The notes: generated by a model from the sequence alone, not told the origin. Counted from the first letter of the stretch, positions 11,413 to 29,300 are shown. The stretch: 32,000 nt of DNA from Trichlorobacter lovleyi SZ (GCF_000020385.1 NC_010814.1:1320001-1352000), one strand, 5' to 3'. Translations and numbers: made by a program.

Positions 11413-11421
11413 CCTCCAGGG

Positions 11422-13407: not shown

Positions 13408-13496
13408 GGGGCTCTTTTCTGCCGTAGGTGATGCATCGTGTCGTATATTTGATTGTTTAGAAGTGGAACAAACAGTTGGCTTTCCGATGTTATTGA

Positions 13497-13817: not shown

Positions 13818-13844
13818 GGTTAACTCCTTTATTTCATTCAGATA

Positions 13845-14480
13845 TTATTTGTGCGTGCGGGAGGGTATAAAATTGTTCTCAAGCCTACTGTGAAAGCCGT
13901 TCGCAGATTTTCTAAAGCGAATCCAGATGCCGTTTTCATTACGCAGAACCAGAGAACCCCTGATCTTTGCCGCAGCCAAGGCAGCATCAAAAAGAGTATC
14001 ATCAAAGTTGTGGCATTGGGGGTGCCAGTCAGGTTCAATCTTGCGCATCTTGTCAATCACCTCGTTGTGCACTTCCCGTGAACCAAATCCATCACTGATA
14101 AAGGTCTGCCCGCCTGGAGCCAGTACCCGCCAAATCTCGCGAAACACCTGGGGCAGGTCATTCCAGAAATAAACCGATCCGTGGCTGACCACCAAGTCTA
14201 CACTGCTATCTTCAAACGGCAGGCAGTGGACATCACCGCAAGCTGCCGTCACCCGATTTTCAAGCATCTTTTGGAAAATGTTTTGCTCCGCAAACTTCGT
14301 CATCTCACTGGATTCATTCAATAGACAGACTCGCAGCTTACTGTTCCAAGCCAGGGCCAGCCCCAGATAGCCGCTCCCGCTGCCCAGATCCAGACAAAAA
14401 CCGCTTTCACTGCCGGTACGATCAAGTATCTGTTGCGCAAGCTGATAATATAACGGCGCAAAGATGTTGCGGGCGATCAA
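13845..14480 (-). CDS. class I SAM-dependent methyltransferase
   Basis: Motif I LDLGSGSGYLG and post-I/II acidic residues (LLNES, GDVHCLPFED). The only canonical start is a TTG at 14480 with no clear SD, so the start is uncertain. Confidence 0.75.
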   Translation of the reverse strand: MIARNIFAPLYYQLAQQILDRTGSESGFCLDLGSGSGYLGLALAWNSKLRVCLLNESSEMTKFAEQNIFQKMLENRVTAACGDVHCLPFEDSSVDLVVSHGSVYFWNDLPQVFREIWRVLAPGGQTFISDGFGSREVHNEVIDKMRKIEPDWHPQCHNFDDTLFDAALAAAKIRGSLVLRNENGIWIRFRKSANGFHSRLENNFIPSRTHK

Positions 14481-14595: not shown

Positions 14596-16212
14596 TTATA
14601 CGATTTTGAACTGACTCACGATTCGTCGCAGATCGTCGGATAGTATGGCAAGGTGATTGGCGGCAGCAGCGGAATCCTTGGAACCTTTTGATGTATTTGC
14701 GATAACCTCGGTAATCTGCTGCATATTGCTACTGATTTCAGAAGTTGTAGCCGTTTGTTCTTCTGCTGCGGTGGCAACCTGCTGAATCTGCATACTAACG
14801 TCGCTGATCTGTTGGAGGATCTCTTCAAGAGCTTTGCCGGAGTCGGATGCCTTCTCGCTTCCTCTGGCAACTTCACTGACCCCTTCGTGCATGGCGAGCA
14901 CAGCATCCTTGGTTTCATGCTGGATGGCTTTGATCATCTCGCCAATTTCCCGGGTCGCTCGCGTGGTACGTTCTGCCAGGGCTCGCACTTCATCGGCTAC
15001 AACGGCAAAACCTCTGCCCTGTTCACCGGCCCGGGCAGCCTCGATGGCGGCATTCAGCGCCAGCAAATTGGTCTGGTCGGCAATGTCCTCAATGGTGCCG
15101 ACGATCTCGCCAATCTGATCGGAACGGCTTCCCAGGCTTTCAACCGCTTTTGCAGAGTTTTTGACCCGCTCGGTAATGCTGTGCATGACTGAAATCGTAT
15201 CACTCACAACCGCTGCACCGGAAGCTGCTGCAGCACTGGCCCGCTGCGAGCCCTCCGAGGCCAGCAGGCAGTTTTGGGCAATATCGCTTGATGTGGCAGT
15301 CATCTCTTCCCCTGCAGTGGCAACAGTTTCCGCTTGGGCAGCTACATTTTCAGCACCTGCGGCCATCTGGGAAGCATTGGATTGGAGTTGGGCGGATGAT
15401 GAGGAAACCTGATCGCTTGTCTGGGCAATCTGATTGATAATATTCCTGATTTTCGTCACAAGAGAGTTGATTTCATCTGCCAGTTGGCCAAATTCATCAT
15501 TGGATGTTACGGCGATCATTTTGGTGAGATCGCCCTCACCCCGGGCAAGGTCGGTCACCTTGGCAACAAAGTCGTTCAGCCTCTTTGTAACGGTTGCCCG
15601 CAGGACAATCAGCAAACAGATAAAGCTGACAGCAAGCGCCACCCCACCGGAGGCCAAGAGCCAGAGGGCGGCTTTTTTACTGGAGCTATAGCCTTGCTCG
15701 ATGCTAGTGGTAAGTTTGAGAGCTCCTAACATCATGGTCTCTTTACTATGACAAGCCTGGCAGCGTTCTTCATTGGCAAGTGGCAATATGGTGTCAAGAA
15801 CATGTGTTCCGTTTAAAGTTTTTTCAAAACTAGCGGGTTTGTTGTTTCTCATGACGTTTGTCACCAGTTCGTCGCCCTTTGTTTTGTTACCCCGCAGTTC
15901 ACCTTTGTCGTTATAAATGGAGAAAGCCAATGCTCGCTTCTGTTCAATCACCTCCTTGATATAGTCATCGACTTTTTTCATGTCGCCAGCCATCATCGCC
16001 GATTTGATATCATCGCCCATGATATTGACAAAGGCCAGGCTGTTGTCTCGCTGTAGACCGACCAGCGCCTGTTTTTCCAGATACAGGGCGGATCCGCCCA
16101 CGATGACGAGACCTGTTATCAGAGCAAGAGTTGCCACAAGGAGAATCTTTGTAGCAATTCCAGTTCTTCTACCTGCTTGTATAGGTGAAGATGTACGTTC
16201 ATGTTGTGACAT
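14596..16212 (-). CDS. methyl-accepting chemotaxis protein with periplasmic CxxCH (c-type haem) sensor domain
   Basis: Two TM helices flank a periplasmic region of about 140 aa containing CQACH (nt 15748-15762). A HAMP domain follows, then the canonical hairpin tip DQTNLLALNAAIEAARAGEQGRGFAVVADEVRALAERT. Confidence 0.95.
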   Translation of the reverse strand: MSQHERTSSPIQAGRRTGIATKILLVATLALITGLVIVGGSALYLEKQALVGLQRDNSLAFVNIMGDDIKSAMMAGDMKKVDDYIKEVIEQKRALAFSIYNDKGELRGNKTKGDELVTNVMRNNKPASFEKTLNGTHVLDTILPLANEERCQACHSKETMMLGALKLTTSIEQGYSSSKKAALWLLASGGVALAVSFICLLIVLRATVTKRLNDFVAKVTDLARGEGDLTKMIAVTSNDEFGQLADEINSLVTKIRNIINQIAQTSDQVSSSSAQLQSNASQMAAGAENVAAQAETVATAGEEMTATSSDIAQNCLLASEGSQRASAAAASGAAVVSDTISVMHSITERVKNSAKAVESLGSRSDQIGEIVGTIEDIADQTNLLALNAAIEAARAGEQGRGFAVVADEVRALAERTTRATREIGEMIKAIQHETKDAVLAMHEGVSEVARGSEKASDSGKALEEILQQISDVSMQIQQVATAAEEQTATTSEISSNMQQITEVIANTSKGSKDSAAAANHLAILSDDLRRIVSQFKIV

Positions 16213-16299: not shown

Positions 16300-16863
16300 C
16301 TAATTCGTGGACCTAGCCTGGTCGCTGTCATGGTCTGAAAGCAATTTTTTCTCTATGGAGCTTATGACCCCATGGATATCCTTCTGGATTGCCCTGATAT
16401 TTGTGGATATCTGTTGGGTCGATACGGAGGTGGTTGTTATCAGGTTGTTTATTTCCTCCATTACCATCGTGAACTCACGACCTGTCTCGCCGGCCCGGGC
16501 CGCTTTGACGGCCACGTTTAACACCAGTAGCTTGGTCAGGTCTGTCATTTTTTCAATCTGGCTGATAATCTCGTCGATCGTATTTGAAGATTTTTCCAGC
16601 CGGCTCATGACTCCAAGCGTTTCTTCCATCCTGACACAGGTCTGGTCGGCACTCTCCGAGGTTTGTCCTGCAACGTTTTGCCTCGCCTTGGCCGAGCCGT
16701 TCACTTGCTGGGGAAGGGGGAAATCTGCCATGGTATAACGGGAGCTAATGGCAATATGTCTGGCTTGGCTGTACAGCGTCAGCATGGCCTTTTGCAGCTT
16801 TGCAACAAGGTTGACGTCTGTGACTGTTACAATACCTATTTTGTTACTGGATTTTACCGCCAC
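16300..16863 (-). CDS. small soluble protein containing only a degenerate MCP hairpin-tip segment (mini-MCP)
   Basis: TDLTKLLVLNVAVKAARAGETGREFTMVMEEINNL aligns to the MCP tip consensus. There is no TM, HAMP or long methylation helices. The GTG start at 16863 is preceded by GGGGGA. It could be a gene fragment. Confidence 0.55.
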   Translation of the reverse strand: MAVKSSNKIGIVTVTDVNLVAKLQKAMLTLYSQARHIAISSRYTMADFPLPQQVNGSAKARQNVAGQTSESADQTCVRMEETLGVMSRLEKSSNTIDEIISQIEKMTDLTKLLVLNVAVKAARAGETGREFTMVMEEINNLITTTSVSTQQISTNIRAIQKDIHGVISSIEKKLLSDHDSDQARSTN

Positions 16864-16942: not shown

Positions 16943-17386
16943 TCATCTGTACAACTCTTGATACTGGCGGCATTGATACGGCTGAACGCCGGAGATCAGG
17001 TACTGCTCAAGCATCTGGTCGTGCTTGTCGATATGCAGGCTGAGCAGCTTCCTGAGGGTCTGCAGGTCGTCGTCGATACAGAGCGCACGGGCTGCCTTGC
17101 AGCGGATACCGGCAATGGTGGTACAGATCCGGAAGTGATCAAGCTTGTGATCTTCATAGGCCAGATAGTCGATCGTAAACATATGGACGTTTTCAGACGC
17201 GGTCTGGCCCAGAACGTTGCCAAGCAGATCTTCAATCTGATGCTCCAGCTCAGCGGGCGGGACCTGATCGGCAGTCGCGATAATCGCGTCAAGCACTGAA
17301 ATTAACCTGGCCTGCCGGCTGTCATACGGCATGAGATGCTGTGTTGCAACATAACCGAAGGTATTGAGTGGGCTGTAAGAAGACAT
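16943..17386 (-). CDS. hypothetical His-rich protein (possible hemerythrin/HHE-like motifs)
   Basis: A 147-aa ORF lying 18 nt downstream of ribBA. It contains HKLDH (H-x3-H) and HIDKHD (H-x4-D) about 34 residues apart, resembling hemerythrin helices 3 and 4. The similarity is at motif level only. Confidence 0.45.
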   Translation of the reverse strand: MSSYSPLNTFGYVATQHLMPYDSRQARLISVLDAIIATADQVPPAELEHQIEDLLGNVLGQTASENVHMFTIDYLAYEDHKLDHFRICTTIAGIRCKAARALCIDDDLQTLRKLLSLHIDKHDQMLEQYLISGVQPYQCRQYQELYR

Positions 17387-17404: not shown

Positions 17405-18607
17405 TCAGGCAGCCAGCAGGTGCCCGAGCTTGTCGCGCTTGGTCTGCAGGTAGCGCATGTTGGTGCTTAACGCCTTCATCTCGATCGGTACCCGCTCAAC
17501 AATATTCAGGCCATACCCCTCCAGTCCGATCATCTTCTTGGGGTTGTTGGTCATCAGGCGGATCTTTCTGGCTCCCAGCGCCCTGAGCATCTGGGCGCCA
17601 ATGCCGTAATCCCGCAGATCGGCCTTGAATCCCAGCGCCTCGTTGGCCTCAACGGTATCGCAGCCCTGATCCTGCAGTTCATAGGCCTTGAGCTTGTTGA
17701 TCAGGCCGATCCCCCTGCCTTCCTGCCGCATGTACAACAGGATGCCTGCGCCTTCCTGTTCAATGCGGTCCATGGCCCGGCTGAGCTGTCCGCCGCAGTC
17801 ACAGCGGATGCTGCCGAATACGTCACTGGTCAGACACTCCGAATGCACCCTGACCAGCACCGGCTCGTCCGGCCTGATCTCTCCCTTGACCAGGGCGATA
17901 TGCTCCAGGCCGTCAATATCATTCTCAAAGGCAACCACGCGGAATTTGCCGGCCCAGGTGGGCAGCTTTGCCTCCGCCACCGGTCGCACCAGTGATTCAT
18001 GCTTCAGCCGGTAGGCCACCAGATCGGCCACCGAGCAGATCCGGATGCCGTGCCGCAGGGCAAACTCCCTCAACTGCGGCATGCGGGCCATGCTGCCGTC
18101 CTCGTTCATGATCTCGCAGATTACCCCGGCCGGTTTCAGCCCGGCCAGACGGGCCAGATCCACCGAACCTTCAGTCTGGCCGGTGCGTACCAGCACCCCG
18201 CCGGCCCGTGCACGCAGCGGAAAGATATGGCCGGGGCGGGAGAGATCCTCCGGCCCGGTATTGTCGGCAATCGCGGTCAGGATGGTCTGGGCCCGGTCTG
18301 CTGCCGAGATGCCGGTGGTCACTCCATGGCGGGCCTCAATGGAAACCGTAAAGGCGGTCTGGAATGGTGAGTTGTTCTCTGAAACCATGGGCGGCAGCTC
18401 AAGCTGGTCACAGCGCTCTTCGGTCAGGGTCAGGCAGATCAGGCCGCGGCCATACTTGGCCATGAAATTGATCGCCTCCGGGGTGACATGCTCGGCTGCC
18501 ATGGTCAGATCGCCTTCGTTCTCCCGATCTTCATCATCAACCAGAATAACCATTCTGCCGTTGCGGATATCCTTTATTGCTGCCCTAATATTGCTACATG
18601 GCACCAT
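17405..18607 (-). CDS. ribBA: bifunctional 3,4-dihydroxy-2-butanone-4-phosphate synthase / GTP cyclohydrolase II
   Basis: The N-half carries [12 protein letters not shown] (DHBP synthase). The C-half carries [18 protein letters not shown] (GCH II zinc site). 400 aa. Confidence 0.95.
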
Positions 18608-18784
18608 GAATATTGTTCCTTTGCCCGAATTTAATGAATGCTCTACTGCACAGTAAGTTAATTGCCTTGGCCAAAGACGCTATCTAGTTAAGGGGTTATT
18701 ACTCCGGCAACTAATGTGCGGTAAATACCGGTTGGCGTATTTCAGAAAGTCAAGAGCAAGGTTCCGCTTAACTATCTTAAAATC

Positions 18785-18818
18785 CCCGTGGAGGAGGGAA
18801 GGGATCTCACTCCACGGG
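18785..18818 (-). terminator. intrinsic terminator downstream of the small tatA paralogue
   Basis: CCCGTGGAG pairs with CTCCACGGG as a 9-bp perfect stem, extendable by GAG/CTC with a 1-nt bulge. On the minus strand it is followed by GATTTTAAG. It lies 67 nt after the stop at 18885. Confidence 0.6.
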
Positions 18819-18884
18819 ATTCATGCAGTGCAAATCAAGTGAGGCCTCAGCCTGAGTTTGACAACATCAATGCAGGTTCTGCTA

Positions 18885-19058
18885 TCAGCTCTCCGCTTTG
18901 GGGTTGATCTCAACTTGATCCTTGCCGTCAGCTGCTCTTCTGAAGTTGCTGATGGCCTTGCCGAATGAGTTGCCCAGTTCGGGCAGTTTTCCCACACCAA
19001 ATACCAACATCAGGATTGCCCCTATGACGAGCAATTCGGGTATACCGAAACCAAACAT
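18885..19058 (-). CDS. tatA: TatA-family twin-arginine translocase subunit (57 aa, absent from ORF track)
   Basis: Hand translation gives MFGFGIPELLVIGAILMLVFGVGKLPELGNSFGKAISNFRRAADGKDQVEINPKAES*. The ATG at 19058 is preceded by AAAGGAAC. The product has a TatA TM helix, hinge and amphipathic helix. Confidence 0.8.
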   Translation of the reverse strand: MFGFGIPELLVIGAILMLVFGVGKLPELGNSFGKAISNFRRAADGKDQVEINPKAES

Positions 19059-19079
19059 AATAGTTCCTTTCTCTTCGCT

Positions 19080-19523
19080 TTAATTGTGCGGCGTACTCTT
19101 GTGACAGACGAAACAGGTGCTGTCTTGAAGGGGCTTGTGACAGCCAGTACAGTGTTTACTGCTCCAGCCTGAACGGTGGCTGGACGGTGGGGTGTTCCGG
19201 TGGCACTCTGTACAGCTGTCCTCTTTGTGACAGGCAAGGCAGGATGACCGGTCCCATCTCGCTTCAAGGCCGTGGCCTTTCTTTATCCACGTAGCGGTAT
19301 GATTGCGCGGCACGACCTCCTGATGGCATTGAATGCATGACACTTTGTCGACATGGCATTCAATGCATTCTTTCATCTGGGCTTTGCTGGCCTGGCCATG
19401 TCGACGCATCCAGGATGTGTCGTGGCTGGGCGGTTTGTTGGATTCCACGGCAAACACAGCTATAGACATTCCCAGTAAAACTATTGCAAACACCGTGGAT
19501 AATGCCGTTAACTTAGCTTTCAT
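19080..19523 (-). CDS. periplasmic hexahaem c-type cytochrome
   Basis: Signal peptide plus six CxxCH motifs (CIECH, CIQCH, CLACH, CTECH, CTGCH, CFVCH) in 147 aa. They are organised as three paired-CxxCH repeats. Confidence 0.9.
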   Translation of the reverse strand: MKAKLTALSTVFAIVLLGMSIAVFAVESNKPPSHDTSWMRRHGQASKAQMKECIECHVDKVSCIQCHQEVVPRNHTATWIKKGHGLEARWDRSSCLACHKEDSCTECHRNTPPSSHRSGWSSKHCTGCHKPLQDSTCFVCHKSTPHN

Positions 19524-19538
19524 TGTGTCCTCTTCTTT

Positions 19539-19934
19539 CTAGAATATTAAGCTCGCCTGTATTTCGGCGGTATAATTAGTATTTAGTCTGTTGTCGATGT
19601 TGTTGTAGAAACTGCCGTGCTCCATGTTAATGTCGGCCATAAAGCTTAAATGTTTGTTGGGTTTGTACTGACCACCGACATAATAGGATCTGGCCCAATC
19701 CATGCATTTTGCCTTGTTGAGGCTGGAAAGGAGGTTGGGATTGATGTCGTAATCATAGCGTTTGTAGGAGGTGCCGCCCCAGACTTCTACAGCCTTTGTA
19801 ATATTTTGGCTGAGCTGAACACCGTACTGAATGCTGTCATTCGTATTGGTGGTCGCCGTTCTTCTTATGCCCCAGTGGTCGGCACTGAAGGAAATGTAGG
19901 TTCCGTCCGTAGGAATACCGGAGATATCAAATTT
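19539..19934 (-). pseudogene. outer-membrane beta-barrel protein, C-terminal part (split by IS21)
   Basis: The frame continues exactly from 22359-23458 once the IS and one TSD copy are removed. The product ends ...AEIQASLIF, the aromatic C-terminus typical of OM barrels. Confidence 0.8.
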
Positions 19935-19992
19935 TGTCAATCGGCATTGAAATTTGACCCACCATCGGCGTCCAAAATTGACCCACCTCAGC
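19935..19992. repeat. IS21 left terminal inverted-repeat block
   Basis: TGTCAATCGGCAT...TTGACCCAC...TCGGCGTCCAAAATTGACCCACCTCAGC. The inner 28 nt are identical to the reverse complement of the right end. Confidence 0.85.
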
Positions 19993-20000
19993 GGTTGATT

Positions 20001-20765
20001 TTAGTCTGAGTTTCTGGTTTTGATTCTCCAGCTTTCATTTCCTGTTTCGACGATTTCGCAGTGATGGGTAACCCTGTCCAGAAGTGCCGTGGTCATTTTG
20101 CCATCACCGAACACCTGCGGCCATTCTCCAAAGGTCAGGTTAGTGGTAATGATAAGCGATGTTCTCTCGTACAGCTTTGATATAAGGTGAAACAGCAGCT
20201 GTCCTCCAGCCTTTGAGAACGGCAGATAGCCCAGTTCGTCCAGCACAACCAGATCAAGCCTGCAGAGTGCCTCTGCAAGCTTTCCTCCGCGTCCGCTTAG
20301 CTTTTCCTGTTCTAGTTGGTTGACCAGATCCAGCAGGTTGAAGTATCGGCCACGCTTACCGTTTCTGATCACCTGCCGTGCAATGGCAATGGCCAGATGG
20401 GTCTTGCCGGTACCGGTTCCACCTACCAGAATGATATTACTCTTTTCAGTAAGAAAGCCTCCCTCATACAGCATTCTGACCTGTGTCTCGTTGATCGGTG
20501 TATCCGTAAACTCAAAGTGATCCAGGTCCTTCTCTACTGGAAACCTTGCCTGACTCAGGCGGTAGCGGATACTTCTGATTCTCCGTTCAGCCAGCTCTGC
20601 ATTAAGCAGCTCAAACAGGATCTTCTCCGGTGTGGCCCGTTGTTTGATGCCTGTGGCGATCAGCTCGTCACAGGCAGTCTTCATGCCATGCAGCCCAAGG
20701 GTCTCCATGGCCTTTTGCAGTTTCTCACGCAGTAGCACAGGCACCTCCGGCAAGCAGCAGGTCAT
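20001..20765 (-). CDS. istB: IS21 helper ATPase IstB
   Basis: Walker [12 protein letters not shown] and a Walker B-like LVVLDELGY. 254 aa, overlapping the istA end. Confidence 0.9.
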
Positions 20766-22239
20766 ACCGCCTGCAGTCAGCTACAGGCGGTATGATCAAA
20801 ACCGGCAGTTTTGCTGCAGGATCTGCCGTTGGTGTCGGTTCTTCATCGTTTCGGGACAACAGATTAAGCACGACATCCCGACTGATGGTATTGGCTGCCA
20901 ATGCATCAGTGCATGCCTGTGTTACTGCTTCAATGCCATAGTAGGAGACAACCGCCAGTATCCCGACAAACTGCCGGTCACCATCACGGTGCTTGGCAAG
21001 GGCACTACGGATTTGCTCAATAGATTCCGGCAAATTCCATTCCTTAAACGGTGCACCGTTTCTGAGTGCTCCCGGCTTCTTCTTCAGTGCCTCCAGATAG
21101 TGCCAGGGATCATAGAAGACCTGATCACGACCAAAGTGCCGTTTGTGGAATCCTACGGTTCTGCCGCTCTGGACAAAGGTCAGACGATCAGCATAGGCCC
21201 GTACCGTGACCGGGTTGCCAACAGCAGAGACATGGACGCTGTAACGGTTGCGGTCAAATGAGACCAGGGAGGTAGAAGATACCTTGGCATCGCTTTCCAG
21301 ATAACCGTCAAACGGAACCGTTACCGTGAGAAGCTGCCGGCGTTCCTCCTTAAACAGGTCATTGATCGTCAGGAGTGGGTTGTCAGGATGTTTCTGGGTT
21401 GCTGCGTAGTCCAGACATTGTTCCTGCAGCCACTGGTTTAGCTCAGAAAGGTTGGTAAATGTCCGCCGTTTGGCGAAGAAACGCTTGCGCACAAGGCCTA
21501 CCTGATTCTCTACCTGCCCCTTCTCCCAGCCTGCAGCAGGAGTGCAGGCTATCGGTTCAAACAGGTAGTGGGAGGCCAGACTCAAAAACCGACGATTGAA
21601 TACACGATCCTTGCCCATCAGGACTTTGGTTACTACGGTTTTTAGGTTGTCGTAGATACCACGCCGACAGGCACCACCAAAGAAGCTGAATGCCTTGATA
21701 TGAGCATCCAGAACCATCTCCAGGCTCTCACGTGTGTAGGCCACGCAAAATGGCATCCGACTGTTACAGAGGCGAAACTGAGCAATCTTGACCTTTACGA
21801 TGATCCCACCCAACTCAATCTGCTCATAGCTCCAGTCAAACTGAAATGCCTCACCAGGATCAAAGGATAGCGGAATAAAGGCTGCGGCTACGCCGCCGCC
21901 GGTCTCTTTGCGCTGCTGCTGGATGTAACGACGGACGCTGTCATAGCCACCTTCAAATCCTTCCCGCTGTAGCGTCTCAAACAATAACTGGGCACTACGA
22001 CGATGGCGGACTGGCTTTACGGCATCTTCAGACAACAGTCCTTTGAGACGTTCTTCAAATGCAGCAAGCTTTGGCCTGGGCTGTTCGGTGCGGGTATAAA
22101 CCTGATCGGTTACGTCACTTCTGATGATTTTCTTGACGGTGTTCTTAGACAGATGAAACTCACGGGCTATCTGCCTGATTGGTTTCTTGTCCCGGTGGTA
22201 AGCCTGGCGGATTTTACGGATGGATTCCACTAGCAGCAT
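20725..22239 (-). CDS. istA: IS21 transposase IstA
   Basis: 504 aa with an N-terminal HTH ([18 protein letters not shown]) and a DDE-type integrase core. It shows the typical istA-istB overlap. Confidence 0.9.
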
Positions 22240-22290
22240 CTCCTTTCAAAGCTCCTCTCTCTGGATGATGCCAAAGAGAATGGAGGAGGT

Positions 22291-22358
22291 GCTGAGGTGG
22301 GTCAATTTTGGACGCCGATTACACCCGAAAGTGGGTCAATATTGCATGCCGATTCACA
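22291..22358. repeat. IS21 right terminal inverted-repeat block
   Basis: The reverse complement reads TGTGAATCGGCATGCAATATTGACCCAC...TCGGCGTCCAAAATTGACCCACCTCAGC. Confidence 0.85.
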
Positions 22359-23458
22359 AATTTACCTCCGACCCGTTCGTAACTGCGATTGTTGAAGTTT
22401 TCAGCACCTTCTACCAATCTTTCCTGGAAGGTTACTCCGATGCTAAAATGCTTCAGAAAGGCTTGATAAAGACCCACCTCGTATTTGCTGTATCTGCTAT
22501 TCGTCGCAAGGGCACTGGTCAACTGGTTTACCGCGTAGCTGCTGTTTGTGCTGCTATTGTTTAGAAGCCCCTCATACTTACCGGTCAGAATCGTCCCAAC
22601 TGAGGTCAGTTCATAGGCAACATCGGCATTTAGTGAACTGGCATTGTCAAGGTTTGTGTAGGCGAGGGCAACATTGCCGTTGGGGATTGCCTGGTCGATG
22701 CGTAACCTACCGTAATCGCTGTTAATGCTCTGGGTATAGAGACGGGTGTACTCGCCGCCAAAGCTTGTTTTCTCGGTGGCTTTTACCGTGATCCCACCGC
22801 CTACCAGATTGTCACGTCCGGTGGGGTAATAGAAGCTTACCGGTCTGCCTCCATAGGCATAGACTGATACTGCATCGTTCAGCTTTACTGTTGCATCGGC
22901 TCCGTCGAGTGCAAACGAGTTCTGGTGCACTAAGTTCACACGTCCCAGGATGATGGATGTGTTTTGGATGACATTGTCAAAGGTGGCTGTACCTAAATAC
23001 AACCGGGGTGACCAGACGTCGGGTTTGCGCTGTGTGTCCAGGGCATCCCGGAAATGGTAGTATGAATCACCTCTTCTATCCCCCTCAAATTTGCCTTTAT
23101 CTCCGTTGATATCAGCGGCAAAGCGGGCATAAGCGGAAAGACTTACGGTGCCGTTACCCAGCTTGACTTGATCGGTGCGCACCCGCAGGTACTGGTAGAA
23201 ATCCTGGTCGTTACCCATATTGTTGCTATCCACATCATTGAATCTGTAACGGTAGCGGGAGGTGAGGGTTGTGTAAACCTTGGTACCGGCAATGCCGGTA
23301 CCAACATAGTTCTCCTGTAATATGCCCGGAGATACCTGCTGCGACCAGCTATCGGGTGTGGTGTAGTTTTCAAGCTCAAAAGCCGGGGCGGTGCCGGTTA
23401 GGGCAGTGATGCAGAGCATCGCAGCCAGAGGGATGCCCCATGTTGAATATCTGTGCAC
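22359..23458 (-). pseudogene. outer-membrane beta-barrel protein, N-terminal part (split by IS21)
   Basis: A GTG start at 23458 lies 6 nt after GAAGGAGG. The signal peptide is HRYSTWGIPLAAMLCITALTGTAPA|FE. The track ORF 22319-23512 runs 13 codons into the IS before stopping. Confidence 0.8.
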
Positions 23459-23617
23459 GAAGTGCCTCCTTCTGTAATGGTTGATATGAAACCGGCCGTC
23501 GCTCACATACACGACGGTCGGTCCAGGCTACCATGGCCGGTGGGACGTTGCCTGTCCTGCAATTAAGGGCGGGCAACAGTCCGGAAGGTCTGTCTCATAC
23601 TTGATTGAGATGCGTAA

Positions 23618-24292
23618 TCACTTGCCGTAAGCAAGGGCCGCATACGACGGGTCGTTCTTGTCGAACGACCCGTCGTATGGTTTTAAAAGAGCGGACGATT
23701 GCAAGTAATATCCATAATCATTGGTGACATGCCGTTCGATTACTAGCCACTCCCCATTGCGATACTCCCACTTGTCGCAATAGCGAGCGACGCCTTGTAT
23801 TAGAGTATATGTGCCATCCCCGTTCGGAAACATTACCGGAGCCGTAACATATGTTTCCGACCCCGCTTTTTTCCCGTTGACGGTAATTGCAATATTACCC
23901 ATGAAGTGAGCGTAGAATCCGCCCGCAGCCGTTATCCCCTTGTCGGTAACATTCACGCACTTATCAACCCAGTCCCAACCGGTTCCTTTAAAAACGGGAC
24001 CCGTATCGGGGTTTGTTCCAAAATCAACATAAGAGTCTTCTGCAAACATTTTTTTGCCTTCTTCGGCATCCTGCCTGTCATCACCGCGACAATATAAACA
24101 TAGTTTGTAACGTATCTCTTCTTTTGCCTCCAAAACCCATAATCTGTCTTGTAGCTGCAAAATATCCGTTTCCGATGTGCTTGTTTCTGCGGCATCCGAA
24201 CTAGCACATGCGGCAAGCCCCATAGTCGCAACGCCTATTGTGCCGATAGCGCTTGCCTTCAAAAAAGTTTTCCGGGATAGCTTTTCATTCAC
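23618..24292 (-). CDS. NTF2/SnoaL-like lipoprotein with twin-arginine-like (RK) signal
   Basis: A GTG start at 24292 follows AAGGAGGA. The signal reads SRKTFLKAS...MGLAAC (lipobox). The body shows the SnoaL_4-type pattern (EIRYKLCLYCRGDD..., ARYCDKWEYRNGEWLVIERH). Confidence 0.8.
   Translation of the reverse strand: MNEKLSRKTFLKASAIGTIGVATMGLAACASSDAAETSTSETDILQLQDRLWVLEAKEEIRYKLCLYCRGDDRQDAEEGKKMFAEDSYVDFGTNPDTGPVFKGTGWDWVDKCVNVTDKGITAAGGFYAHFMGNIAITVNGKKAGSETYVTAPVMFPNGDGTYTLIQGVARYCDKWEYRNGEWLVIERHVTNDYGYYLQSSALLKPYDGSFDKNDPSYAALAYGK
23641..23679. repeat. 17-bp perfect inverted repeat (5-nt loop) inside the 3' end of the NTF2-like CDS
   Basis: CATACGACGGGTCGTTC ttgtc GAACGACCCGTCGTATG, which encodes PYDGSFDKNDPSY. 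Confidence 0.9.
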
Positions 24293-24386
24293 CTTTAAAT
24301 CCTCCTTCAGTAAGTCTCCTGACGTTGAATAGATTTGTGGTCTGCAAAAGCCCATGAATTTTGAGAAAAAGCAGCATGATGCCGTT

Positions 24387-24600
24387 TGTGTAGAGACTGC
24401 CCTTTATTTTGAGCCGTTTCTTCGTGATGATAATCAGCACATAGACCAATATTGTTATCCAAATCTGAGCGTTGGCAGCGTTTTCCGATGTGCCGTAGAA
24501 ACTCTTGATTCTTAGATTCTGCTTGATCCATTTAGGAGGGCAGCTCTACCTGCCAGCGACAACGGTACAGCTCGGCAATGTTCAAGTCATCTGCCCTGAG
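24387..24600 (-). pseudogene. IS4-family (DDE_Tnp_1) transposase C-terminal remnant, frameshifted
   Basis: AELYRCRWQVEL is followed, after a frameshift near 24538, by KWIKQNLRIKSFYGTSENAANAQIWITILVYVL. This reproduces the IS4 Y-x2-R-x3-E-x6-K signature. There is no N-terminal catalytic region. Confidence 0.7.
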
Positions 24601-24687
24601 CGGAGATGAAGGGCGTATGACGACCAGCAGAAGAATGACGCTGATCAGGATTTGCGATGAGATTGAGTGTGTGAACAAAATTGCAAA

Positions 24688-24713
24688 GCACCCCGCGGTA
24701 TGTCGCGGGGTGC
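24688..24713 (-). terminator. intrinsic terminator after the flavoprotein gene
   Basis: GCACCCCGCG pairs with CGCGGGGTGC as a 10-bp stem with a 6-nt loop, 15 nt after the stop. On the minus strand it is followed by TTTGCAATTTTGT. Confidence 0.75.
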
Positions 24714-24728
24714 CCATGGGTAGGATCA

Positions 24729-26438
24729 CTAACTGGCGTCCCATGCAGTTTCTTTGGCAATCTGCTGGATGGCAATGCGGCCAAAGGCAAAGGCGCCGCT
24801 TGTGCTGCCGCCGCCGACATAGTATTGGGAGTTAACGTTGGCTGTTACGGACCCAGCGGCATAAAAACCGGTGATGACGCTGCCCTTGGCAGTTAGGACT
24901 TGTGATTTTGGGTTTATACGCAAGCCGCCAGTTGTTTGAGCAAACACTCTGTTTATCTCACGTTTATAGGCATAGAACGGACCCGTTTCAATTTTCTGGA
25001 GTACGCTCGGATCCTTGTTGAACTGGTCATCCTTGCCGGCGGCAGCAAAGGTATTATATCGTGCCAACGTCTGCCCAAGGTATGGTGCGCTGATCTTTGT
25101 GGCCAGCTCATCAATTGTATTTGCAGAATGTGTGACGAGATATTGGGCGGTGGCGGCGCCGATGCTGTCATAAATCTTCTGGTCGAAGATGATCCATGCT
25201 GACGGGTAGGTGTTGACAATCCACGCACCCATTTCCGAACCAGACAGGTCTTCGGGGGCGAATCGTTCTCCTGATGGATTGACAATGATTGCTTTCACAA
25301 AGTTGTTTGTCTCGTAATAAATGGGACACCAGTTTTCAGCATTGTTGAGCGACTTGGTGCCTGCCCCAATTGCTTGCCCCATGAGGAGGCCGGTCCCAAT
25401 ATCCATACAGTTGCCTGCATAGGAGGGTACTTGACCACCGTTACATAACGCAGACTTCGGCTGATACAATTCCAGCAGGTCCTTGTTGTTGATAAAACCC
25501 CCGTTACAGAAAAGCACCGCCTTTTTTGCCTTGTAGTAGTAGGTGGTCGACTCGTCCACCACCGGTACTCCGTTGTCATCCGTTTCGCCGGCTTTTGTTT
25601 TTACTGCGGCGACCCCGACCACGCGCCCATCGGCATTGGTAATCAAGCGGGTAGCCCTGGTGTTGTACAGAACTTTGTCGTTCGTACCCATGGAGGCCAG
25701 CGCTTTGGTTTCCAGTGCAACCCACAGTGTATTGCCGGCAGTAGTGCCGAGATAGTTACCGTTTGCATCTTTTTTCTTTTCGGCCATATGCATATGCGGC
25801 ACAGCCTTGCTTGTTTTGCCGTCACGTACAAGTCGACGCTCGTTGCCGTAGATGAGAACACCACCAGATGGAGGTGACGTGTATAGGGGCTGATAATTCC
25901 CGTATGTCACTCCGGCATCTTTAAGCATGCTGTAGACCTCGGCAATGTTTTCGCTGTATGCCTTGATCAAGGCAGCATCTCCACCAACACCCACAGCAGC
26001 AAGAGTGGTGGTATAGAATTCGTCAGCAGTTTCAGTAAAGCCGGAGGCGGTTTGATCGGCAGTACCGGCACCCAACCAAGTGCCACCACCGCACTTATAG
26101 GTGCTTGGGGCGTAAACCCGTTGTCCTATGGGCTTTTTATCTTCGTCCTGGGCTTCCAGCACCAGCAGCTTTGCATTGATCCCCTTTTCCTTGTTTGTGA
26201 TCATTGCCGCCGCTGCCGCGCCGCCGAATCCGACTATTACAACATCGGCCTCAGCATCCCATGCTGCTGGTAAATTCGGATCTGTGGTGGTGTTGCTGGA
26301 GCTACCAATTCGAGTGACATTGTCCCCGCAGCCAGCAGTAAGCCCCAAAGCCATTGTTCCCATGGCAAGACCACTTGCCTTAAGAAAACCACGGCGTGAC
26401 ATATCTTCTTTTGTTTTTTGTGTGCCTTGTTTACTCAT
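24729..26438 (-). CDS. Tat-exported lipoprotein FAD-dependent oxidoreductase (fumarate reductase / 3-ketosteroid dehydrogenase-type FAD_binding_2 superfamily)
   Basis: Tat motif SRRGFLKAS and lipobox LTAGC. Dinucleotide fold VVIVGFGGAAAAA. C-terminal FAD motif GFYAAGS. 569 aa. Confidence 0.9.
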   Translation of the reverse strand: MSKQGTQKTKEDMSRRGFLKASGLAMGTMALGLTAGCGDNVTRIGSSSNTTTDPNLPAAWDAEADVVIVGFGGAAAAAMITNKEKGINAKLLVLEAQDEDKKPIGQRVYAPSTYKCGGGTWLGAGTADQTASGFTETADEFYTTTLAAVGVGGDAALIKAYSENIAEVYSMLKDAGVTYGNYQPLYTSPPSGGVLIYGNERRLVRDGKTSKAVPHMHMAEKKKDANGNYLGTTAGNTLWVALETKALASMGTNDKVLYNTRATRLITNADGRVVGVAAVKTKAGETDDNGVPVVDESTTYYYKAKKAVLFCNGGFINNKDLLELYQPKSALCNGGQVPSYAGNCMDIGTGLLMGQAIGAGTKSLNNAENWCPIYYETNNFVKAIIVNPSGERFAPEDLSGSEMGAWIVNTYPSAWIIFDQKIYDSIGAATAQYLVTHSANTIDELATKISAPYLGQTLARYNTFAAAGKDDQFNKDPSVLQKIETGPFYAYKREINRVFAQTTGGLRINPKSQVLTAKGSVITGFYAAGSVTANVNSQYYVGGGSTSGAFAFGRIAIQQIAKETAWDAS

Positions 26439-26493
26439 ATAGATAGTCCCTTTCTATGGCCTTACATGTATTAAAAACATATTGATTCATCTG

Positions 26494-27081
26494 TTACGGT
26501 TGGGTTGCCAGATAGTCTGCAATTTTCTGTAACTGTGTATCGTCCAAACCAAAAGTCATGCCGTAATTCTTGAACGCCGTTACATTTCTGAATGCCGCTG
26601 GTATGCGTGTGGGTACACCATGGCATGTTGAAGTGCCGCAGCTTTTTTTGTATTGTGCCTCTCCGTCCAACACGCCACTGCCACCGCTGGTTGTGCTCTT
26701 AAATGTGCCTGATACGTTGCCAATAGTTAATGTTGTGGTTGTGGTTGTGCCGTTTAAAGCCGAAGCGGTATGCCGTACCCGTACAGATTGCCCTGTACTT
26801 ACCGTGCCGGCAGTAGTGGTAAATTCTGCGTCTCCGATGGAGTAGCTGCCGCCTGTAACACTGATAGGCACAGCACCGGTAACGCCACTAACGGTAATTG
26901 AGTTGGAAGTTACTGTAGAAGATGGTGCTACATCAGTTTGGCTTGTAAACGTGAAAGATTTTTGAGTTGTACCACCAGTGTTAGTATCAGTTTCGTATAT
27001 TGTTTTATCTTCTCCACAGCCACTAAATGTGAATAACGAAATCAACAATACAGCAAAAATCAAATATCTTTTTAACTCCAT
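26494..27081 (-). CDS. lipoprotein with Thr-rich beta-sandwich-like domain and C-terminal class-I-like cytochrome c domain (CX4CH)
   Basis: Lipobox FSGC. The C-terminal region GEAQYKKSCGTSTCHG...NYGMTF...LQKIADYL resembles monohaem cytochrome c. The Cys spacing is C-x4-CH (nt 26620-26640) rather than CxxCH. Confidence 0.7.
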   Translation of the reverse strand: MELKRYLIFAVLLISLFTFSGCGEDKTIYETDTNTGGTTQKSFTFTSQTDVAPSSTVTSNSITVSGVTGAVPISVTGGSYSIGDAEFTTTAGTVSTGQSVRVRHTASALNGTTTTTTLTIGNVSGTFKSTTSGGSGVLDGEAQYKKSCGTSTCHGVPTRIPAAFRNVTAFKNYGMTFGLDDTQLQKIADYLATQP

Positions 27082-27224
27082 CTCTCGTTAAATCCTTTCT
27101 GTGATTTTTTGTTGCTAATTTGTGTTTAGTAGCTTCAAATGTACTGATGTAGGTCCATTACCTAGCTGCCTCCTTCCGTGTAGGTATTGATATGCTTGTT
27201 GGGATATTTTATTCTGCCAGTATT

Positions 27225-27240
27225 AGCTAAGATTGTGCCA
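27225..27240 (-). promoter_or_regulatory. sigma-54 (-24/-12) promoter for the cytochrome/flavoprotein operon
   Basis: The minus strand reads TGGCACAATCTTAGCT against the consensus TGGCAC-N5-TTGCW. GG-N10-GC spacing is exact, with one mismatch in the -12 box. It lies about 145 nt upstream of the ATG at 27081. Confidence 0.6.
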
Positions 27241-27303
27241 AAGTGGATTTGAGTGGTAATTGCCTGTAATTATTGCTTGTTTTTGGCAGGCTTTCCGCTG
27301 TTG

Positions 27304-27370
27304 GTCGTATACGACAAAGGCTTGTGTCGTATATGGTGATTTGATGTTGTTTTGTCGTATATGACGACAA
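27304..27370. promoter_or_regulatory. cluster of GTCGTAT-containing palindromes (candidate enhancer/UAS for the adjacent sigma-54 activator)
   Basis: GTCGTATACGAC at 27304-27315 is a perfect palindrome. GTGTCGTATAT lies at 27324-27334. TTGTCGTATATGACGACAA at 27352-27370 has 7-nt arms. The cluster sits about 65-130 nt upstream of the -24 element. Confidence 0.5.
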
Positions 27371-27662
27371 TAGTGGTGTGTTGGGCTTTGGGGTTGATGC
27401 GCTTTGGGTCGGGGTGGGGCATAATCGCTGGTGTTGTCAGGTGTATGTGTGAGTATTGGCTGTCATTTTATCTGGGGTGCTTTGTAGATTCTGGTCTGTT
27501 GAATTCATGCGACCGATAGCTTCAGTGGTAAATTGTCCTGTGTTCATGAAGAGTGCGGCTGTTATGGTGTGTAACTATAGTGTTAATGGCACGCTGACAT
27601 GCCTTTGGGGTGCTCGATATTGCACGTCTAGTTGTTTAATATGGTAATTATGGTGTCGTATT

Positions 27663-27678
27663 TGGCAAGGATGTTGCT
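27663..27678 (+). promoter_or_regulatory. sigma-54 (-24/-12) promoter upstream of the activator gene
   Basis: TGGCAAGGATGTTGCT has exact GG-N10-GC spacing and one mismatch to consensus. It lies 66 nt upstream of the ATG at 27744 and 1 nt after a fourth GTGTCGTAT copy (27653-27661). Confidence 0.6.
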
Positions 27679-27743
27679 GACTGTCTCATTCAACAACAGT
27701 TTGAATATGCTTCAAAATAACACTGCATCAGGAGAAGGTTGTC

Positions 27744-29300
27744 ATGACTGTCAACAAGGAAGAGTTTTTCAGGGAAATGACGTTAAGGATGTCGAGCAGT
27801 CTTGACATCAACATAGTCTTAAAACTGGTGCTGGAGTACCTACAGAGATTTATGCCTCTCAACCAAGTGCACTTGTCTTACGCTGCGGATGGACAACTGG
27901 CTGAAAGCAATACGAGCAATTGTGTCGCATTGGCAAACGACGGTATGTATCCCGACATTCGGTGTCATGCCTCTCAGCCTTCCAAAATACAACAGTGGGT
28001 ACTTAAACAGAAGAGACCTTTCATGGATAAAGATATTCTTGTAGTTAACGACTGCCAGCACATCGCTTCTGGTCCGGATAGCGCCAGCTCTCTCATTGTG
28101 CCTCTTCGAATCGACACCAAGCTTATCGGATTTTTATGGCTTTGGGCTATGGGTGAAAACAGATTTAACGCTGACCATGCCGATTTGTTGGAAAGTGTGG
28201 CCGCTCCATTTGCATTGGCGTTGTCTAATGTTAATAGCTACGCTTCATTGCTTAAAAACAGGGAGACAATCATAGACGATAACCGTTTTCTGAATAATGA
28301 ACTCCTTTCGCAGGCGGAAGGCAGAATCATCGGAGCGAGTATGGGGTTACGTGACGTGATGATACTGGTGCAACAGGTGGCACGACAAAATACCACGGTG
28401 CTGATCGTTGGCGAAACGGGAACGGGCAAGGAGGGAATTGCCAATGCGATCCATTTTGCCTCACCGCGTAAAGATGGCCCCTTTATCAAGATCAACTGCG
28501 GTGCAATTGCCGAAAATCTTATTGATGACGAATTATTTGGTCATGAAAAGGGAGCATTTACGGGGGCTACTTCTGAAAAGCGTGGGAGGTTTGAGCGGGC
28601 CAATGGTGGCACATTTTTTCTCGATGAAATCGGCGAATTACCGCTTCAGAGTCAGGTAAGGTTGTTGCGTGTATTACAAAATAAGGTGATCAGCCGTGTG
28701 GGTGGAGAGAAGCCAATTCCTGTTGACGTGCGGATAATAGCGGCAACCAATCGAGATTTGAAACAGATGGTTGCTGAAGGTCGGTTCCGGGAAGACCTCT
28801 GGTTTCGTCTGGAGGTCTTCCCTATCTCGATACCACCTCTTCGACAGCGTAAAGAGGATATTCCCGCCTTGATCCGCCACTTTGTGACGCAGAAAAGCAA
28901 GGAGCTGAACATTGCTCCTTCCCCTGCAGTTGCGCCAGGCGCGTATGAGAGACTTATGAGTTATGGCTGGCCTGGCAATGTCCGTGAGCTTGAAAATATG
29001 GTGGAACGAGAGCTGATTCGCTATCAAGGTGGGCTCCTGAGATTCGACTGTCTGTTGCTGGAAGAAAAATGTCGAGAAGCCGCTGCGGTGTCCAACAATA
29101 TCGAAACATCTACCAGGCCTTTAAGTCTCGACGAAGCAATGTGCTTGCATATCAACAATGTTTTGGAGATGACAAACAATAAGATTCATGGGACCAACGG
29201 AGCTGCAGAATTGCTTGGCATCAATCCTAGCACGTTGCGAGGGCGAATGCGTAATCTTGGAATCCTGCACGGAACAAGAAACGCAAAACGAACTAAGTAG
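27744..29300 (+). CDS. sigma-54-dependent transcriptional activator, GAF sensor + AAA+ + Fis-type HTH
   Basis: N-terminal GAF-like region (SSLIVPLRIDTKLIGFLWLWA...), Walker A GETGTGKE, the GAFTGA loop, Walker B FFLDEIGEL, and C-terminal HTH AAELLGINPSTLRGRMRNLGI. The RBS is GGAGAAGG. Confidence 0.95.
   Translation: MTVNKEEFFREMTLRMSSSLDINIVLKLVLEYLQRFMPLNQVHLSYAADGQLAESNTSNCVALANDGMYPDIRCHASQPSKIQQWVLKQKRPFMDKDILVVNDCQHIASGPDSASSLIVPLRIDTKLIGFLWLWAMGENRFNADHADLLESVAAPFALALSNVNSYASLLKNRETIIDDNRFLNNELLSQAEGRIIGASMGLRDVMILVQQVARQNTTVLIVGETGTGKEGIANAIHFASPRKDGPFIKINCGAIAENLIDDELFGHEKGAFTGATSEKRGRFERANGGTFFLDEIGELPLQSQVRLLRVLQNKVISRVGGEKPIPVDVRIIAATNRDLKQMVAEGRFREDLWFRLEVFPISIPPLRQRKEDIPALIRHFVTQKSKELNIAPSPAVAPGAYERLMSYGWPGNVRELENMVERELIRYQGGLLRFDCLLLEEKCREAAAVSNNIETSTRPLSLDEAMCLHINNVLEMTNNKIHGTNGAAELLGINPSTLRGRMRNLGILHGTRNAKRTK

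Follow-up and report, generated by a model that had tools for sequence, protein, structure and literature searches.

Between positions 18,885 and 29,300 of a 32,000-nucleotide stretch of the Trichlorobacter lovleyi SZ genome (GCF_000020385.1, NC_010814.1:1320001-1352000; hereafter the window, with positions counted from its first letter) lies a block of genes that raises a simple question: what does a bacterium do with a flavoprotein, two cytochromes, an outer-membrane barrel and a private piece of export machinery in one operon? The original prediction, made from the DNA alone, had read six genes head to tail on the minus strand, for a lipoprotein cytochrome c, a flavin adenine dinucleotide (FAD) oxidoreductase with a twin-arginine translocation (Tat) signal, an NTF2-fold lipoprotein, a β-barrel, a hexahaem cytochrome and a TatA, with a GAF/AAA+/helix-turn-helix (HTH) activator encoded divergently, and our annotation confirmed this arrangement almost gene by gene. 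Our answer, to which we would attach a probability of about 0.5, is that the operon encodes a respiratory terminal oxidoreductase at the outer membrane fed by a porin–cytochrome conduit: the logic of Shewanella DmsEFAB, built from unrelated proteins. Gene content, conservation, modular co-occurrence, targeting signals, haem motifs and disruption by an insertion sequence (IS) are seen directly; from these we infer the seating of the cytochrome in the barrel, the outward display, the direction of electron flow and the class of substrate.

To our knowledge, the known outer-membrane conduits (Mtr, Pcc and Ext) end in multihaem cytochromes, Shewanella DmsEFAB being the exception. The principle of a conduit-fed enzyme is already known, and what would be new here is the proteins themselves, the minimal six-haem wire, the rule that the enzymes are lipoproteins and a flavoprotein as the terminal enzyme. 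The original prediction did not recognize the combination as a described system. In the literature we searched, the coverage of which was incomplete so that absence is unproven, there was likewise no description of the barrel–hexahaem pair, of its link to Tat lipoproteins or of a conduit-linked flavoprotein.

A conserved cluster and its portable halves

The cluster is conserved, apparently undescribed and, by the company its genes keep in other genomes, made of two portable halves: the lipoprotein cytochrome with its flavoprotein, and the barrel with its hexahaem cytochrome. The uninterrupted syntenic copy that the original prediction proposed to look for does exist, on a contig from a public sequencing run (L011; L numbers denote loci throughout), in the order activator, 195-residue cytochrome, 569-residue flavoprotein, SnoaL_4 protein (the NTF2-fold component), 496-residue barrel, 148-residue cytochrome and TatA. 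Variants occur in L010 (activator, 186-residue lipoprotein cytochrome, 576-residue flavoprotein, barrel, hexahaem cytochrome and TatA, with no SnoaL gene) and in the complete genome of a cultured organism, Geobacter sp. FeAm09 (L029: activator, cytochrome c, 571-residue flavoprotein, barrel and hexahaem cytochrome). The tatA gene keeps its position in L010 (86% identical) and L011 (100%) and is found again at the end of the L008 molybdoenzyme cluster (76%).

What stands beside the barrel–hexahaem pair changes from place to place. It is a type 1 flavoprotein in the window and L011 and a type 2 flavoprotein in L010 and L029, the two types being 26% identical to each other. In L008, L009 and L012-L020 it is a molybdoenzyme with DmsA/YnfE and DmsB subunits, these loci coming from Geovibrio, Seleniivibrio, other Deferribacterales and a second locus in FeAm09. 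Type 2 flavoproteins are nearest to a vinyl-phenol reductase model, far under its cut-off. The catalytic subunits share an export signature: a twin-arginine motif and then a lipobox with Gly at +2, present in nine of nine molybdenum subunits and in every flavoprotein examined. Through all of this the barrel changes little, its identity to the window's being 73% in L010, 62% in L029 and 65% at the FeAm09 molybdoenzyme locus (61-73% over the contexts). Because the barrels are so alike while the enzymes are unrelated, the barrel appears to track the cytochrome and not the enzyme. The idea in the original prediction that the barrel admits substrate fares poorly on this count, as on the constant presence of a hexahaem gene behind it.

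The other half is just as mobile. A lipoprotein cytochrome c lies directly upstream of every homologue of the window's flavoprotein, and the activator travels with this pair: homologues are encoded divergently beside the module in L001, L011 (99%), L010, L029, L008 (53%) and L007 (39%). The operon in L003 joins the flavoprotein pair to a decahaem cytochrome resembling MtrA and to an MtrB_PioB barrel of full length (196 bits, cut-off 23). Outside the window's own lineage the closest relative is L001, with 62% identity in the flavoprotein, 70% in the cytochrome and 69% in the activator; there the pair is followed by a different 443-residue barrel and by 5-haem and 4-haem lipoprotein cytochromes. 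We considered the L001 barrel as a member of the same family and rejected it; the barrel profile misses it at E <= 10 in a small database, and we treat it as a different conduit.

Several paralogous barrel–hexahaem–DmsAB clusters can occur in one genome, as in one Deferribacterales metagenome-assembled genome (L012, L019 and L020) and in Seleniivibrio (L016 and L018). These clusters appear to be unannotated, and the genera concerned respire selenate, arsenate, sulphur or iron. The L008 and L009 clusters are followed by radical-SAM or B12-radical-SAM genes and a gene for a TorD-like chaperone. In L008 (FeAm09) the molybdoenzyme, at 10925-13983, is called as two overlapping open reading frames (ORFs) of 887 and 218 residues, which could reflect a frameshift, a sequencing error or recoding.

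The putative conduit pair and the enzyme beside it

Profile hidden Markov model searches had been proposed for every product. FAD_binding_2, SnoaL_4 and TatA found their proteins; the barrel, the hexahaem cytochrome and the lipoprotein cytochrome fell into no family. Neither the fragments of the barrel nor its intact homologue P0121 matches Pfam or NCBIfam at E <= 1, and a profile search found no sequence relative in the PDB. Homologues are rare, with 27 matches among 5.8 billion proteins, the intact ones being 460-505 residues long. The barrel profile, run against 1.84 billion representatives, gave 32 matches at E <= 1e-30, 194 at <= 1e-10 and 422 at <= 1e-3. The named distant relatives are all called 'hypothetical', with no ExtI or OmbB among the names. 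The model of P0121 (87% identical to the window's barrel; 26-sequence alignment) has 22 long strands and no plug domain at a mean predicted local distance difference test score (pLDDT) of 71. With this model, Foldseek returned generic 18-24-strand barrels at template-modelling (TM) scores of ~0.4, and MtrB was not among the 50 matches listed. Between the signal peptide and the first strand runs a strongly conserved motif, AFExGGYTTPDSWSQQVSPGQ (residues 26-46 of the A1 consensus; window ~23290-23400, minus strand), which is predicted to be disordered (pLDDT < 50) and may be a docking or plug segment.

The hexahaem cytochrome has no relative in Pfam or NCBIfam (E <= 1) or in the PDB. Across 28 homologues the six CXXCH motifs, another six His residues and an AxA site for signal-peptide cleavage vary little or not at all. 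Six bis-His haems are plausible because the six motifs are matched by six extra invariant His, and the sequences are consistent with all of them packed into ~120 mature residues, which would leave little room for anything besides the haem chain. A single-chain model from the 28-sequence alignment reached a mean pLDDT of only 50 and was unusable. At the haem spacing of MtrA, six haems would extend over ~45-50 Å, about the thickness of the outer membrane, and the lumen of a 22-strand plugless barrel should be wide enough to take such a rod.

Wherever the barrel is full length, the two genes stand together. A scan with the barrel profile, taking one genome per species, gave 17 loci. Together with loci found earlier this makes 13 that are full length, from Geobacteraceae-like genomes, Geovibrio, Seleniivibrio and other Deferribacterales, and in all 13 the start of the hexahaem gene lies no more than ~20 nt beyond the barrel gene's end, which the hexahaem gene, taken as the longest ORF, even overlaps in some loci. 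Judged by gene order, barrel and hexahaem cytochrome are an obligate pair. Behind the distant barrel relatives (L021 and L023-L028; Omnitrophota, Kiritimatiellota, Sumerlaeota and Desulfobacteraceae) come lipoprotein cytochromes with 12-14 haems and 351-400 residues. A segment of these is homologous to the hexahaem cytochrome (E = 1e-16 to 1e-21), which may be a cut-down version of them.

The flavoprotein opens with SRRGFLK and then the lipobox LTAGC, and TIGR01409 recognizes it at 19.7 bits (cut-off 16.7). Its homologues are rare in database searches, and its NCBIfam matches all lie far under their cut-offs: 115.8 vs 789, 102.6 vs 788 and 62 vs 793 bits for the steroid-dehydrogenase models, and 150.3 vs 285.45 bits for TIGR01813 (flavocytochrome c3). 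It has no haem motif, and the original prediction was right that this is not a fused flavocytochrome c3. The closest solved structure is 4AT0, a 3-ketosteroid delta4-(5alpha)-dehydrogenase (E = 2.5e-35), with the flavocytochrome c fumarate reductases next. Fumarate reductase itself was tried as an identity and rejected. When the protein is aligned to 1D4C, H365 falls in an insertion that the query does not have, R402 becomes Gly, H504 Ala and R545 Tyr. Because none of these four residues, which we take to be the substrate-binding and catalytic residues of Fcc3, is conserved, a fumarate reductase seems excluded. The PEDxGGxEMG stretch around the R402 position is kept, without the Arg, in the flavoprotein homologues. 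In the 4AT0 alignment the Tyr of GGYASG falls on the Tyr of QYYVGG and the Ser two residues further on falls on Gly; the KstD-type catalytic Tyr/Ser pair presumably lies here, near the 4AT0 C-terminus. The protein is best described, on these alignments, as a member of the class of oxidoreductases that act on C=C bonds, with no known family assigned.

Its partner, the lipoprotein cytochrome, combines a lipobox (FSGC), a Ser/Thr-rich and β-rich domain and a C-terminal mini class-I domain with CGTSTCH, and has no match in Pfam or NCBIfam at E <= 1. Identity to it drops from the value for L001 to 53% in L004-6 and 42% in L010, and L003 and L007 have dihaem lipoprotein cytochromes that share the C-terminal ...QLxxIADYL helix. 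Among the monohaem proteins the haem motif is CX4CH in the window, L011 and L001 and CXXCH in L004 and L010. The CX4CH form (residues 148-154; CGTSTCH or CGTASCH) is limited to the window's lineage, distant homologues having CXXCH, and it appears to be a derived two-residue insertion.

Where would these proteins sit, and which way would they work? Under the +2 sorting rule, which comes from E. coli, a residue other than Asp at +2 predicts sorting to the outer membrane. The window's three lipoproteins have Gly or Ala there and none has Asp. Because the inner-membrane retention signal is absent, the flavoprotein and the lipoprotein cytochrome c are expected on the outer membrane, and not on the outer face of the inner membrane as originally proposed. 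As to direction, a more distant relative of the flavoprotein, 34% identical, has behind it in L038 genes for a multihaem cytochrome and for a membrane cytochrome b (Ni_hydr_CYTB), a layout typical of quinol-linked respiratory reductases. This layout, and the DmsAB-type enzymes in the paralogous modules, favor by analogy a flavoprotein that acts as a reductase.

A proposed surface reductase weighed against other readings

Put together, the parts suggest the following scheme. The activator and sigma-54 would switch on the operon. The flavoprotein, exported by Tat and anchored by lipid, would reduce an organic acceptor by two electrons, probably at a C=C or comparable bond, with the Sec-exported lipoprotein monohaem cytochrome c as its electron-entry subunit. 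The plugless barrel of ~22 strands would hold the 120-residue, six-haem wire across the outer membrane. Electrons would run from the quinol pool through inner-membrane and periplasmic cytochromes to the hexahaem cytochrome in the barrel, from there to the lipoprotein cytochrome c and at last to FAD, which would reduce its substrate at or beyond the cell surface. The extra TatA would help with export of the folded, cofactor-loaded enzyme.

The nearest precedent is in Shewanella oneidensis, where DmsEFAB comprises a periplasmic carrier (DmsE), a barrel (DmsF) and the extracellular DmsAB, which acts on dimethyl sulfoxide (DMSO) or iodate, is exported by Tat and then leaves by type II secretion (PMC9048795). 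As in that system, one operon here unites a barrel of the outer membrane with a multihaem cytochrome and with a cofactor enzyme, exported by Tat, that takes the place of an outer-membrane cytochrome; the paralogous L008 and L009 modules carry enzymes of DmsA/DmsB type, and type II secretion genes lie nearby. The parts, however, are different ones. The barrel is not MtrB/PioB (no PF11854 or TIGR03509 match even at E <= 1, the L003 barrel serving as positive control) and has ~22 strands where MtrB/PioB has 26. Its partner cytochrome fits 6 haems into 147 residues, as against 10 in ~300, and has no significant match to TIGR03508. The terminal enzyme is a flavoprotein with a monohaem cytochrome c, and the enzymes are all lipoproteins.

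Porin–cytochrome (Pcc) conduits, OmbB-OmaB-OmcB of Geobacter among them, have barrels of 18-22 strands and periplasmic cytochromes of 5-14 haems (Shi et al. 2014, PMC4245776), and Anaeromyxobacter and Kuenenia have two-gene pcc clusters (PMC4245776). The original prediction had set Pcc and Mtr conduits aside for want of 8-12-haem partners, an exclusion that fails because of these published ranges, into which 22 strands and six haems fit; the enzyme pair in L003, moreover, does sit with MtrA and MtrB. The pair resembles Pcc further in having the barrel gene followed at once by a multihaem cytochrome gene at each of the 13 full-length loci, in the overlap of taxa (Geobacter, Deferribacteres) and in its distant relatives with 12-14-haem cytochromes of ~350-400 residues. 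It differs in having no outer-membrane multihaem cytochrome of OmcB type, a component of most Pcc clusters though not of all; the only lipoprotein cytochrome has a single haem, and lipoprotein enzymes stand in that place. On architecture the pair fits the loosely defined Pcc class, of which it may be a divergent branch, or else it may form an independent family.

The enzyme has its own echoes. Like Shewanella flavocytochrome c3 (Fcc3/FccA) and urocanate reductase, it is a FAD_binding_2 domain fed by c-type haem outside the cytoplasm; unlike Fcc3, which is fused and soluble, it is a lipoprotein separate from its lipoprotein cytochrome, with export by Tat and no FMN_bind domain. With 4AT0, its best full-length solved relative, it has the motifs PED..SG and QYY..GG in common, whereas KstD-family enzymes are cytoplasmic or membrane-associated and have no Tat signal, lipobox or cytochrome partner. 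The TatA has a counterpart in Campylobacter jejuni, which has two TatA proteins, paralogues dedicated to substrates (PMC4148689). In both cases an extra TatA gene accompanies Tat-dependent redox enzymes, with the difference that here it lies inside the operon of its presumed cargo.

Some things speak against a surface reductase of this kind. Exposure at the surface cannot be read from sequence, and the +2 rule is borrowed from E. coli. We infer rather than see the hexahaem cytochrome inside the barrel, its monomer model standing at pLDDT 50, and the fold matches of the barrel, at TM-scores of ~0.4, are generic only. The closest solved relative of the flavoprotein is a dehydrogenase, so that catalysis could run in either direction. 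Around half of the type 1 flavoprotein loci (L004-6, L007 and L036) have no conduit genes adjacent, and the enzyme pair can evidently work without them. This last point also suits the main rival arrangement, in which flavoprotein and cytochrome c face the periplasm from the inner leaflet of the outer membrane, the barrel is a substrate channel and the hexahaem cytochrome a soluble periplasmic carrier of electrons from quinol dehydrogenases of the inner membrane. Of the Tat-exported flavin and molybdenum reductases so far known, most reside in the periplasm, the hexahaem protein has an ordinary cleavable signal peptide, and the fold matches of the barrel are substrate channels (Occ/OprD, AlgE and chitoporin). 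We nevertheless think it unlikely. A substrate-specific channel should co-vary with its enzyme, and the barrel sequence is not tied to the enzyme; it is the cytochrome to which the barrel is universally coupled, and distant barrels have 12-14-haem lipoprotein cytochromes as partners and lack any enzyme. The same enzyme pair, furthermore, shares an operon with MtrAB, itself no substrate pore, and a plugless barrel of 22 strands would make an unusually wide open pore.

Could the enzyme run the other way, as a KstD-type dehydrogenase that desaturates an organic donor outside the cytoplasm? Its electrons would then leave by way of cytochrome c and the hexahaem–barrel pair for an extracellular acceptor such as Fe(III) or humics, or else enter the respiratory chain. 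The match to 4AT0, the lack of the Arg that serves as acid catalyst in fumarate-type enzymes and the occurrence of homologues in Fe(III)-reducing lineages would all sit well with oxidation. We still judge it improbable, given that the same conduit pairs with DmsA/YnfE-type enzymes, whose characterized members are reductases, that the models closest to type 2 flavoproteins are those of vinyl-phenol reductase and flavocytochrome c, that the L038 layout is one typical of reductases and that no catabolic genes for a donor substrate lie adjacent. The resemblance to steroid dehydrogenases would also suit the original prediction, that of an FAD enzyme acting jointly with the NTF2-fold protein, at the inner membrane's outer face, on a hydrophobic cyclic ketone or enoate let in by the barrel. 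The SnoaL_4 fold family does include ketosteroid-isomerase-like enzymes, and the window and L011 have two different SnoaL alleles in the same slot (DNA similarity undetectable, proteins 39-43% identical), so that the slot at least is kept in the lineage. The SnoaL gene is, however, absent from L001, L003, L004-6, L007, L010, L029, L036 and L037, which leaves the argument from the pairing to a substrate unsupported. When metagenomes were scanned with the two alleles, six loci came up, all of them unlinked to flavoprotein or barrel, and the one relative inspected (L032) is a cytoplasmic paralogue without a signal. Add to this steroid-dehydrogenase scores 4-10 times under their cut-offs, lipoproteins with no Asp at +2 and a barrel that follows the cytochrome and not the enzyme, and very little probability remains for that proposal. 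We would give scarcely any, and slightly less, to a barrel that acts as a Slam- or type 11-like exporter, flipping Tat lipoprotein enzymes to the surface while the hexahaem cytochrome merely carries electrons. Every neighboring catalytic subunit is indeed a lipoprotein, and the barrel has its conserved unstructured N-terminal motif; set against that, it has no similarity to DUF560/Slam or any other family, its distant relatives pair only with multihaem cytochromes, and type II secretion genes, near in three loci, could fill the role.

If the surface reductase is right, conduit-fed surface enzymes would be a general and modular strategy, with one small conduit reused by molybdoenzymes and two flavoprotein subfamilies, and one flavoprotein pair served by three types of conduit. 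The result bears on how anaerobes of soils and sediments respire organic or metalloid acceptors. Somewhat short of even odds, in our estimate, is the broader proposal that this minimal trans-outer-membrane wire is a universal socket for Tat lipoprotein enzymes on the surface of Geobacteraceae-like bacteria and Deferribacterales, and the present enzyme the first extracellular flavoprotein terminal reductase of a Gram-negative bacterium. Extracellular respiration would then reach beyond metals, DMSO and iodate to organic acceptors kept out of the periplasm. As an insulated haem wire the barrel–hexahaem pair would be far smaller than MtrAB, and structural and synthetic work could make use of it. 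Some ~200-400 barrel clusters labelled 'hypothetical' in public data become targets for annotation, and FeAm09, which is cultured and has both the flavoprotein version, around FO488_12850, and the molybdoenzyme version, around FO488_05570/05575, makes substrate and regulation testable.

Regulation, insertion elements and neighboring genes

The features of the block are collected in the table.

Features of the block in the window, with companion genes at other loci in the last row
Feature	Position	Strand	Evidence
Terminator-like hairpin, then TTTT	~18778-18823	minus	minimum free energy -24 kcal/mol, z = -3.4
tatA, 57 residues	18885-19058	minus	PF02416 56.3 bits vs cut-off 21; TIGR01411 55.3 vs 53.9
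Hexahaem c-type cytochrome, 147 residues	19080-19523	minus	six CXXCH; cleavable signal peptide AFA|VES
Barrel gene, 3' part, ending ...ASLIF	19539-19929	minus	joins 5' part in frame after removal of IS21
IS21-family element, complete	19935-22358	minus	istA 20725-22239, istB 20001-20765, inverted repeats, target duplication
Barrel gene, 5' part	22359-23458	minus	ORF; intact homologues known
SnoaL_4 (NTF2-fold) Tat-like lipoprotein	23618-24292	minus	PF13577 81.5 bits vs cut-off 24
IS4-family transposase 3'-end remnant, frameshifted	~24357-24660 (approximate)	minus	translated frames ...AELYRCRWQVEL... and KWIKQNLRIKSFYGTSENAANAQIW...
GC-rich hairpin just past flavoprotein stop codon	24686-24715	minus	minimum free energy -28.6 kcal/mol, z = -4.45
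Tat lipoprotein FAD_binding_2 oxidoreductase, 569 residues	24729-26438	minus	PF00890 88.5 bits
Lipoprotein monohaem cytochrome c, 195 residues	26494-27081	minus	lipobox FSGC, CX4CH
Sigma-54 type -24/-12 element TGGCACAATCTTAGCT	27225-27240	minus	one mismatch to consensus
Palindromic sites, GTCGTATACGAC type; candidate activator binding sites	27303-27372	none	repeated sites
GAF / sigma-54 AAA+ / HTH_8 activator, 518 residues	27744-29300	plus	PF00158, GAF_2, AAA_lid_14
Azoreductase-like Flavodoxin_2 genes	L001 6721-7353; L004 236-940; L036 839-1471; L037 2039-2674		

The activator has the make-up of a bacterial enhancer-binding protein, with an N-terminal sensor (GAF_2, 48 bits), an AAA+ domain (PF00158, 237 bits) and a C-terminal HTH (HTH_8, a weak 17.8 bits). 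NifA, the best NCBIfam match, was rejected as an equivalog at 370.7 bits, under the cut-off of 528.85. The -24/-12 promoter of the original prediction is there, and by itself it is at chance level for the window. The match gains weight because a similar element, TGGCAYAnTnTTAGCW, recurs upstream of the homologous operons in L001, L005, L008, L011 and L029, a recurrence that supports sigma-54 control. The repeated palindromes reported for the intergenic region amount to two of GTCGTATACGAC type and one half-site, located 65-130 bp further upstream than the -24 element. In L011 the sites are unchanged and in more distant loci they are not recognizable; they are candidate binding sites for the activator. 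A gene for an azoreductase-like Flavodoxin_2 protein (cytoplasmic and dependent on flavin mononucleotide) accompanies the cytochrome–flavoprotein pair in four lineages other than the window's, which may point to a quinone or some other electrophile as inducer or substrate.

Both insertion elements of the original prediction are real, one a complete IS21 and the other a remnant that its motifs AELYRCRWQVEL and KWIKQNLRIKSFYGTSENAANAQIW presumably place in the IS4 family. The IS21 has istA, istB (IstB_IS21 253 bits; rve and Mu-transpos_C_2 also matched) and inverted repeats at its termini, and the 5-bp target AAATT is perfectly duplicated, at 19930-19934 and 22359-22363. Each of its ends (19940-19987 and 22297-22354) has two tandem copies of a ~24-nt repeat, ATCGGCnTnnAAAnTTGACCCACC. 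When the element and one AAATT copy are deleted in silico, an open barrel frame of 496 residues results, from a GTG at 23458 preceded by a GAAGGAGG ribosome-binding site and equal in length to intact homologues. Because the duplication is perfect and the frame is restored, the insertion is recent, and because it breaks the barrel gene the conduit half, as read here, cannot work in the window. The activator, cytochrome c, flavoprotein, SnoaL protein, hexahaem cytochrome and TatA retain intact reading frames. The original prediction that the module is non-functional here thus holds for the IS21 and not for the second cause it named, the IS4 scar with its terminator. Both hairpins fold significantly better than shuffled sequence, that at the operon's end bearing out the predicted terminator. 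We considered the one behind the flavoprotein gene as a disruptive, IS-borne terminator and rejected the idea, since the intact L011 has a hairpin, if a different one, at the matching position.

A comparison with L011 points to a further event. From the activator to the flavoprotein stop the two DNAs are 98.6% identical, and at 24734, precisely where the IS4 remnant starts, the similarity breaks off sharply (compared with L011 4848-5688). Beyond it the barrel 5' part (22357-23481) is 82.5% identical, and the stretch from the barrel 3' part through the hexahaem cytochrome and tatA to ~340 bp beyond (18543-19934) is 91.4% identical. This fall in identity past 24734 indicates that the downstream half was exchanged by recombination, with the SnoaL position a swappable cassette and the SnoaL-type lipoprotein, on this evidence, a lineage-specific accessory. 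The SnoaL protein combines a Tat-like RK motif with the lipobox LAAC. Its start is probably the GTG at 24292 and not position 24355, the former having a ribosome-binding site (GAAGGAGG).

The block was predicted to be poorer in GC than its surroundings, and it is: 0.42-0.53 over 18.5-29.5 kb, as against 0.55-0.63 in the type II secretion region. A second low-GC block, at 11.5-17 kb, holds a TatC gene (12538-13407, minus strand; PF00902 200 bits) and a 106-residue TatA/B-like gene (13497-13817), both between the type II secretion operon (gspC 11422-12324 to gspG 6236-6679) and the module. In L010 the module is flanked by gspC and gspD, and in FeAm09 (L029) gspG and a TatA/B-like gene lie just upstream; this proximity could reflect shared ancestry or a functional link to surface display. 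Adjoining a full-length, 538-residue chemoreceptor gene (14596-16212) is a 187-residue ORF (16300-16863, minus strand) with a partial methyl-accepting chemotaxis protein signalling domain, probably a gene fragment, and after it come a hemerythrin-like ORF (16943-17386) and ribBA (17405-18607).

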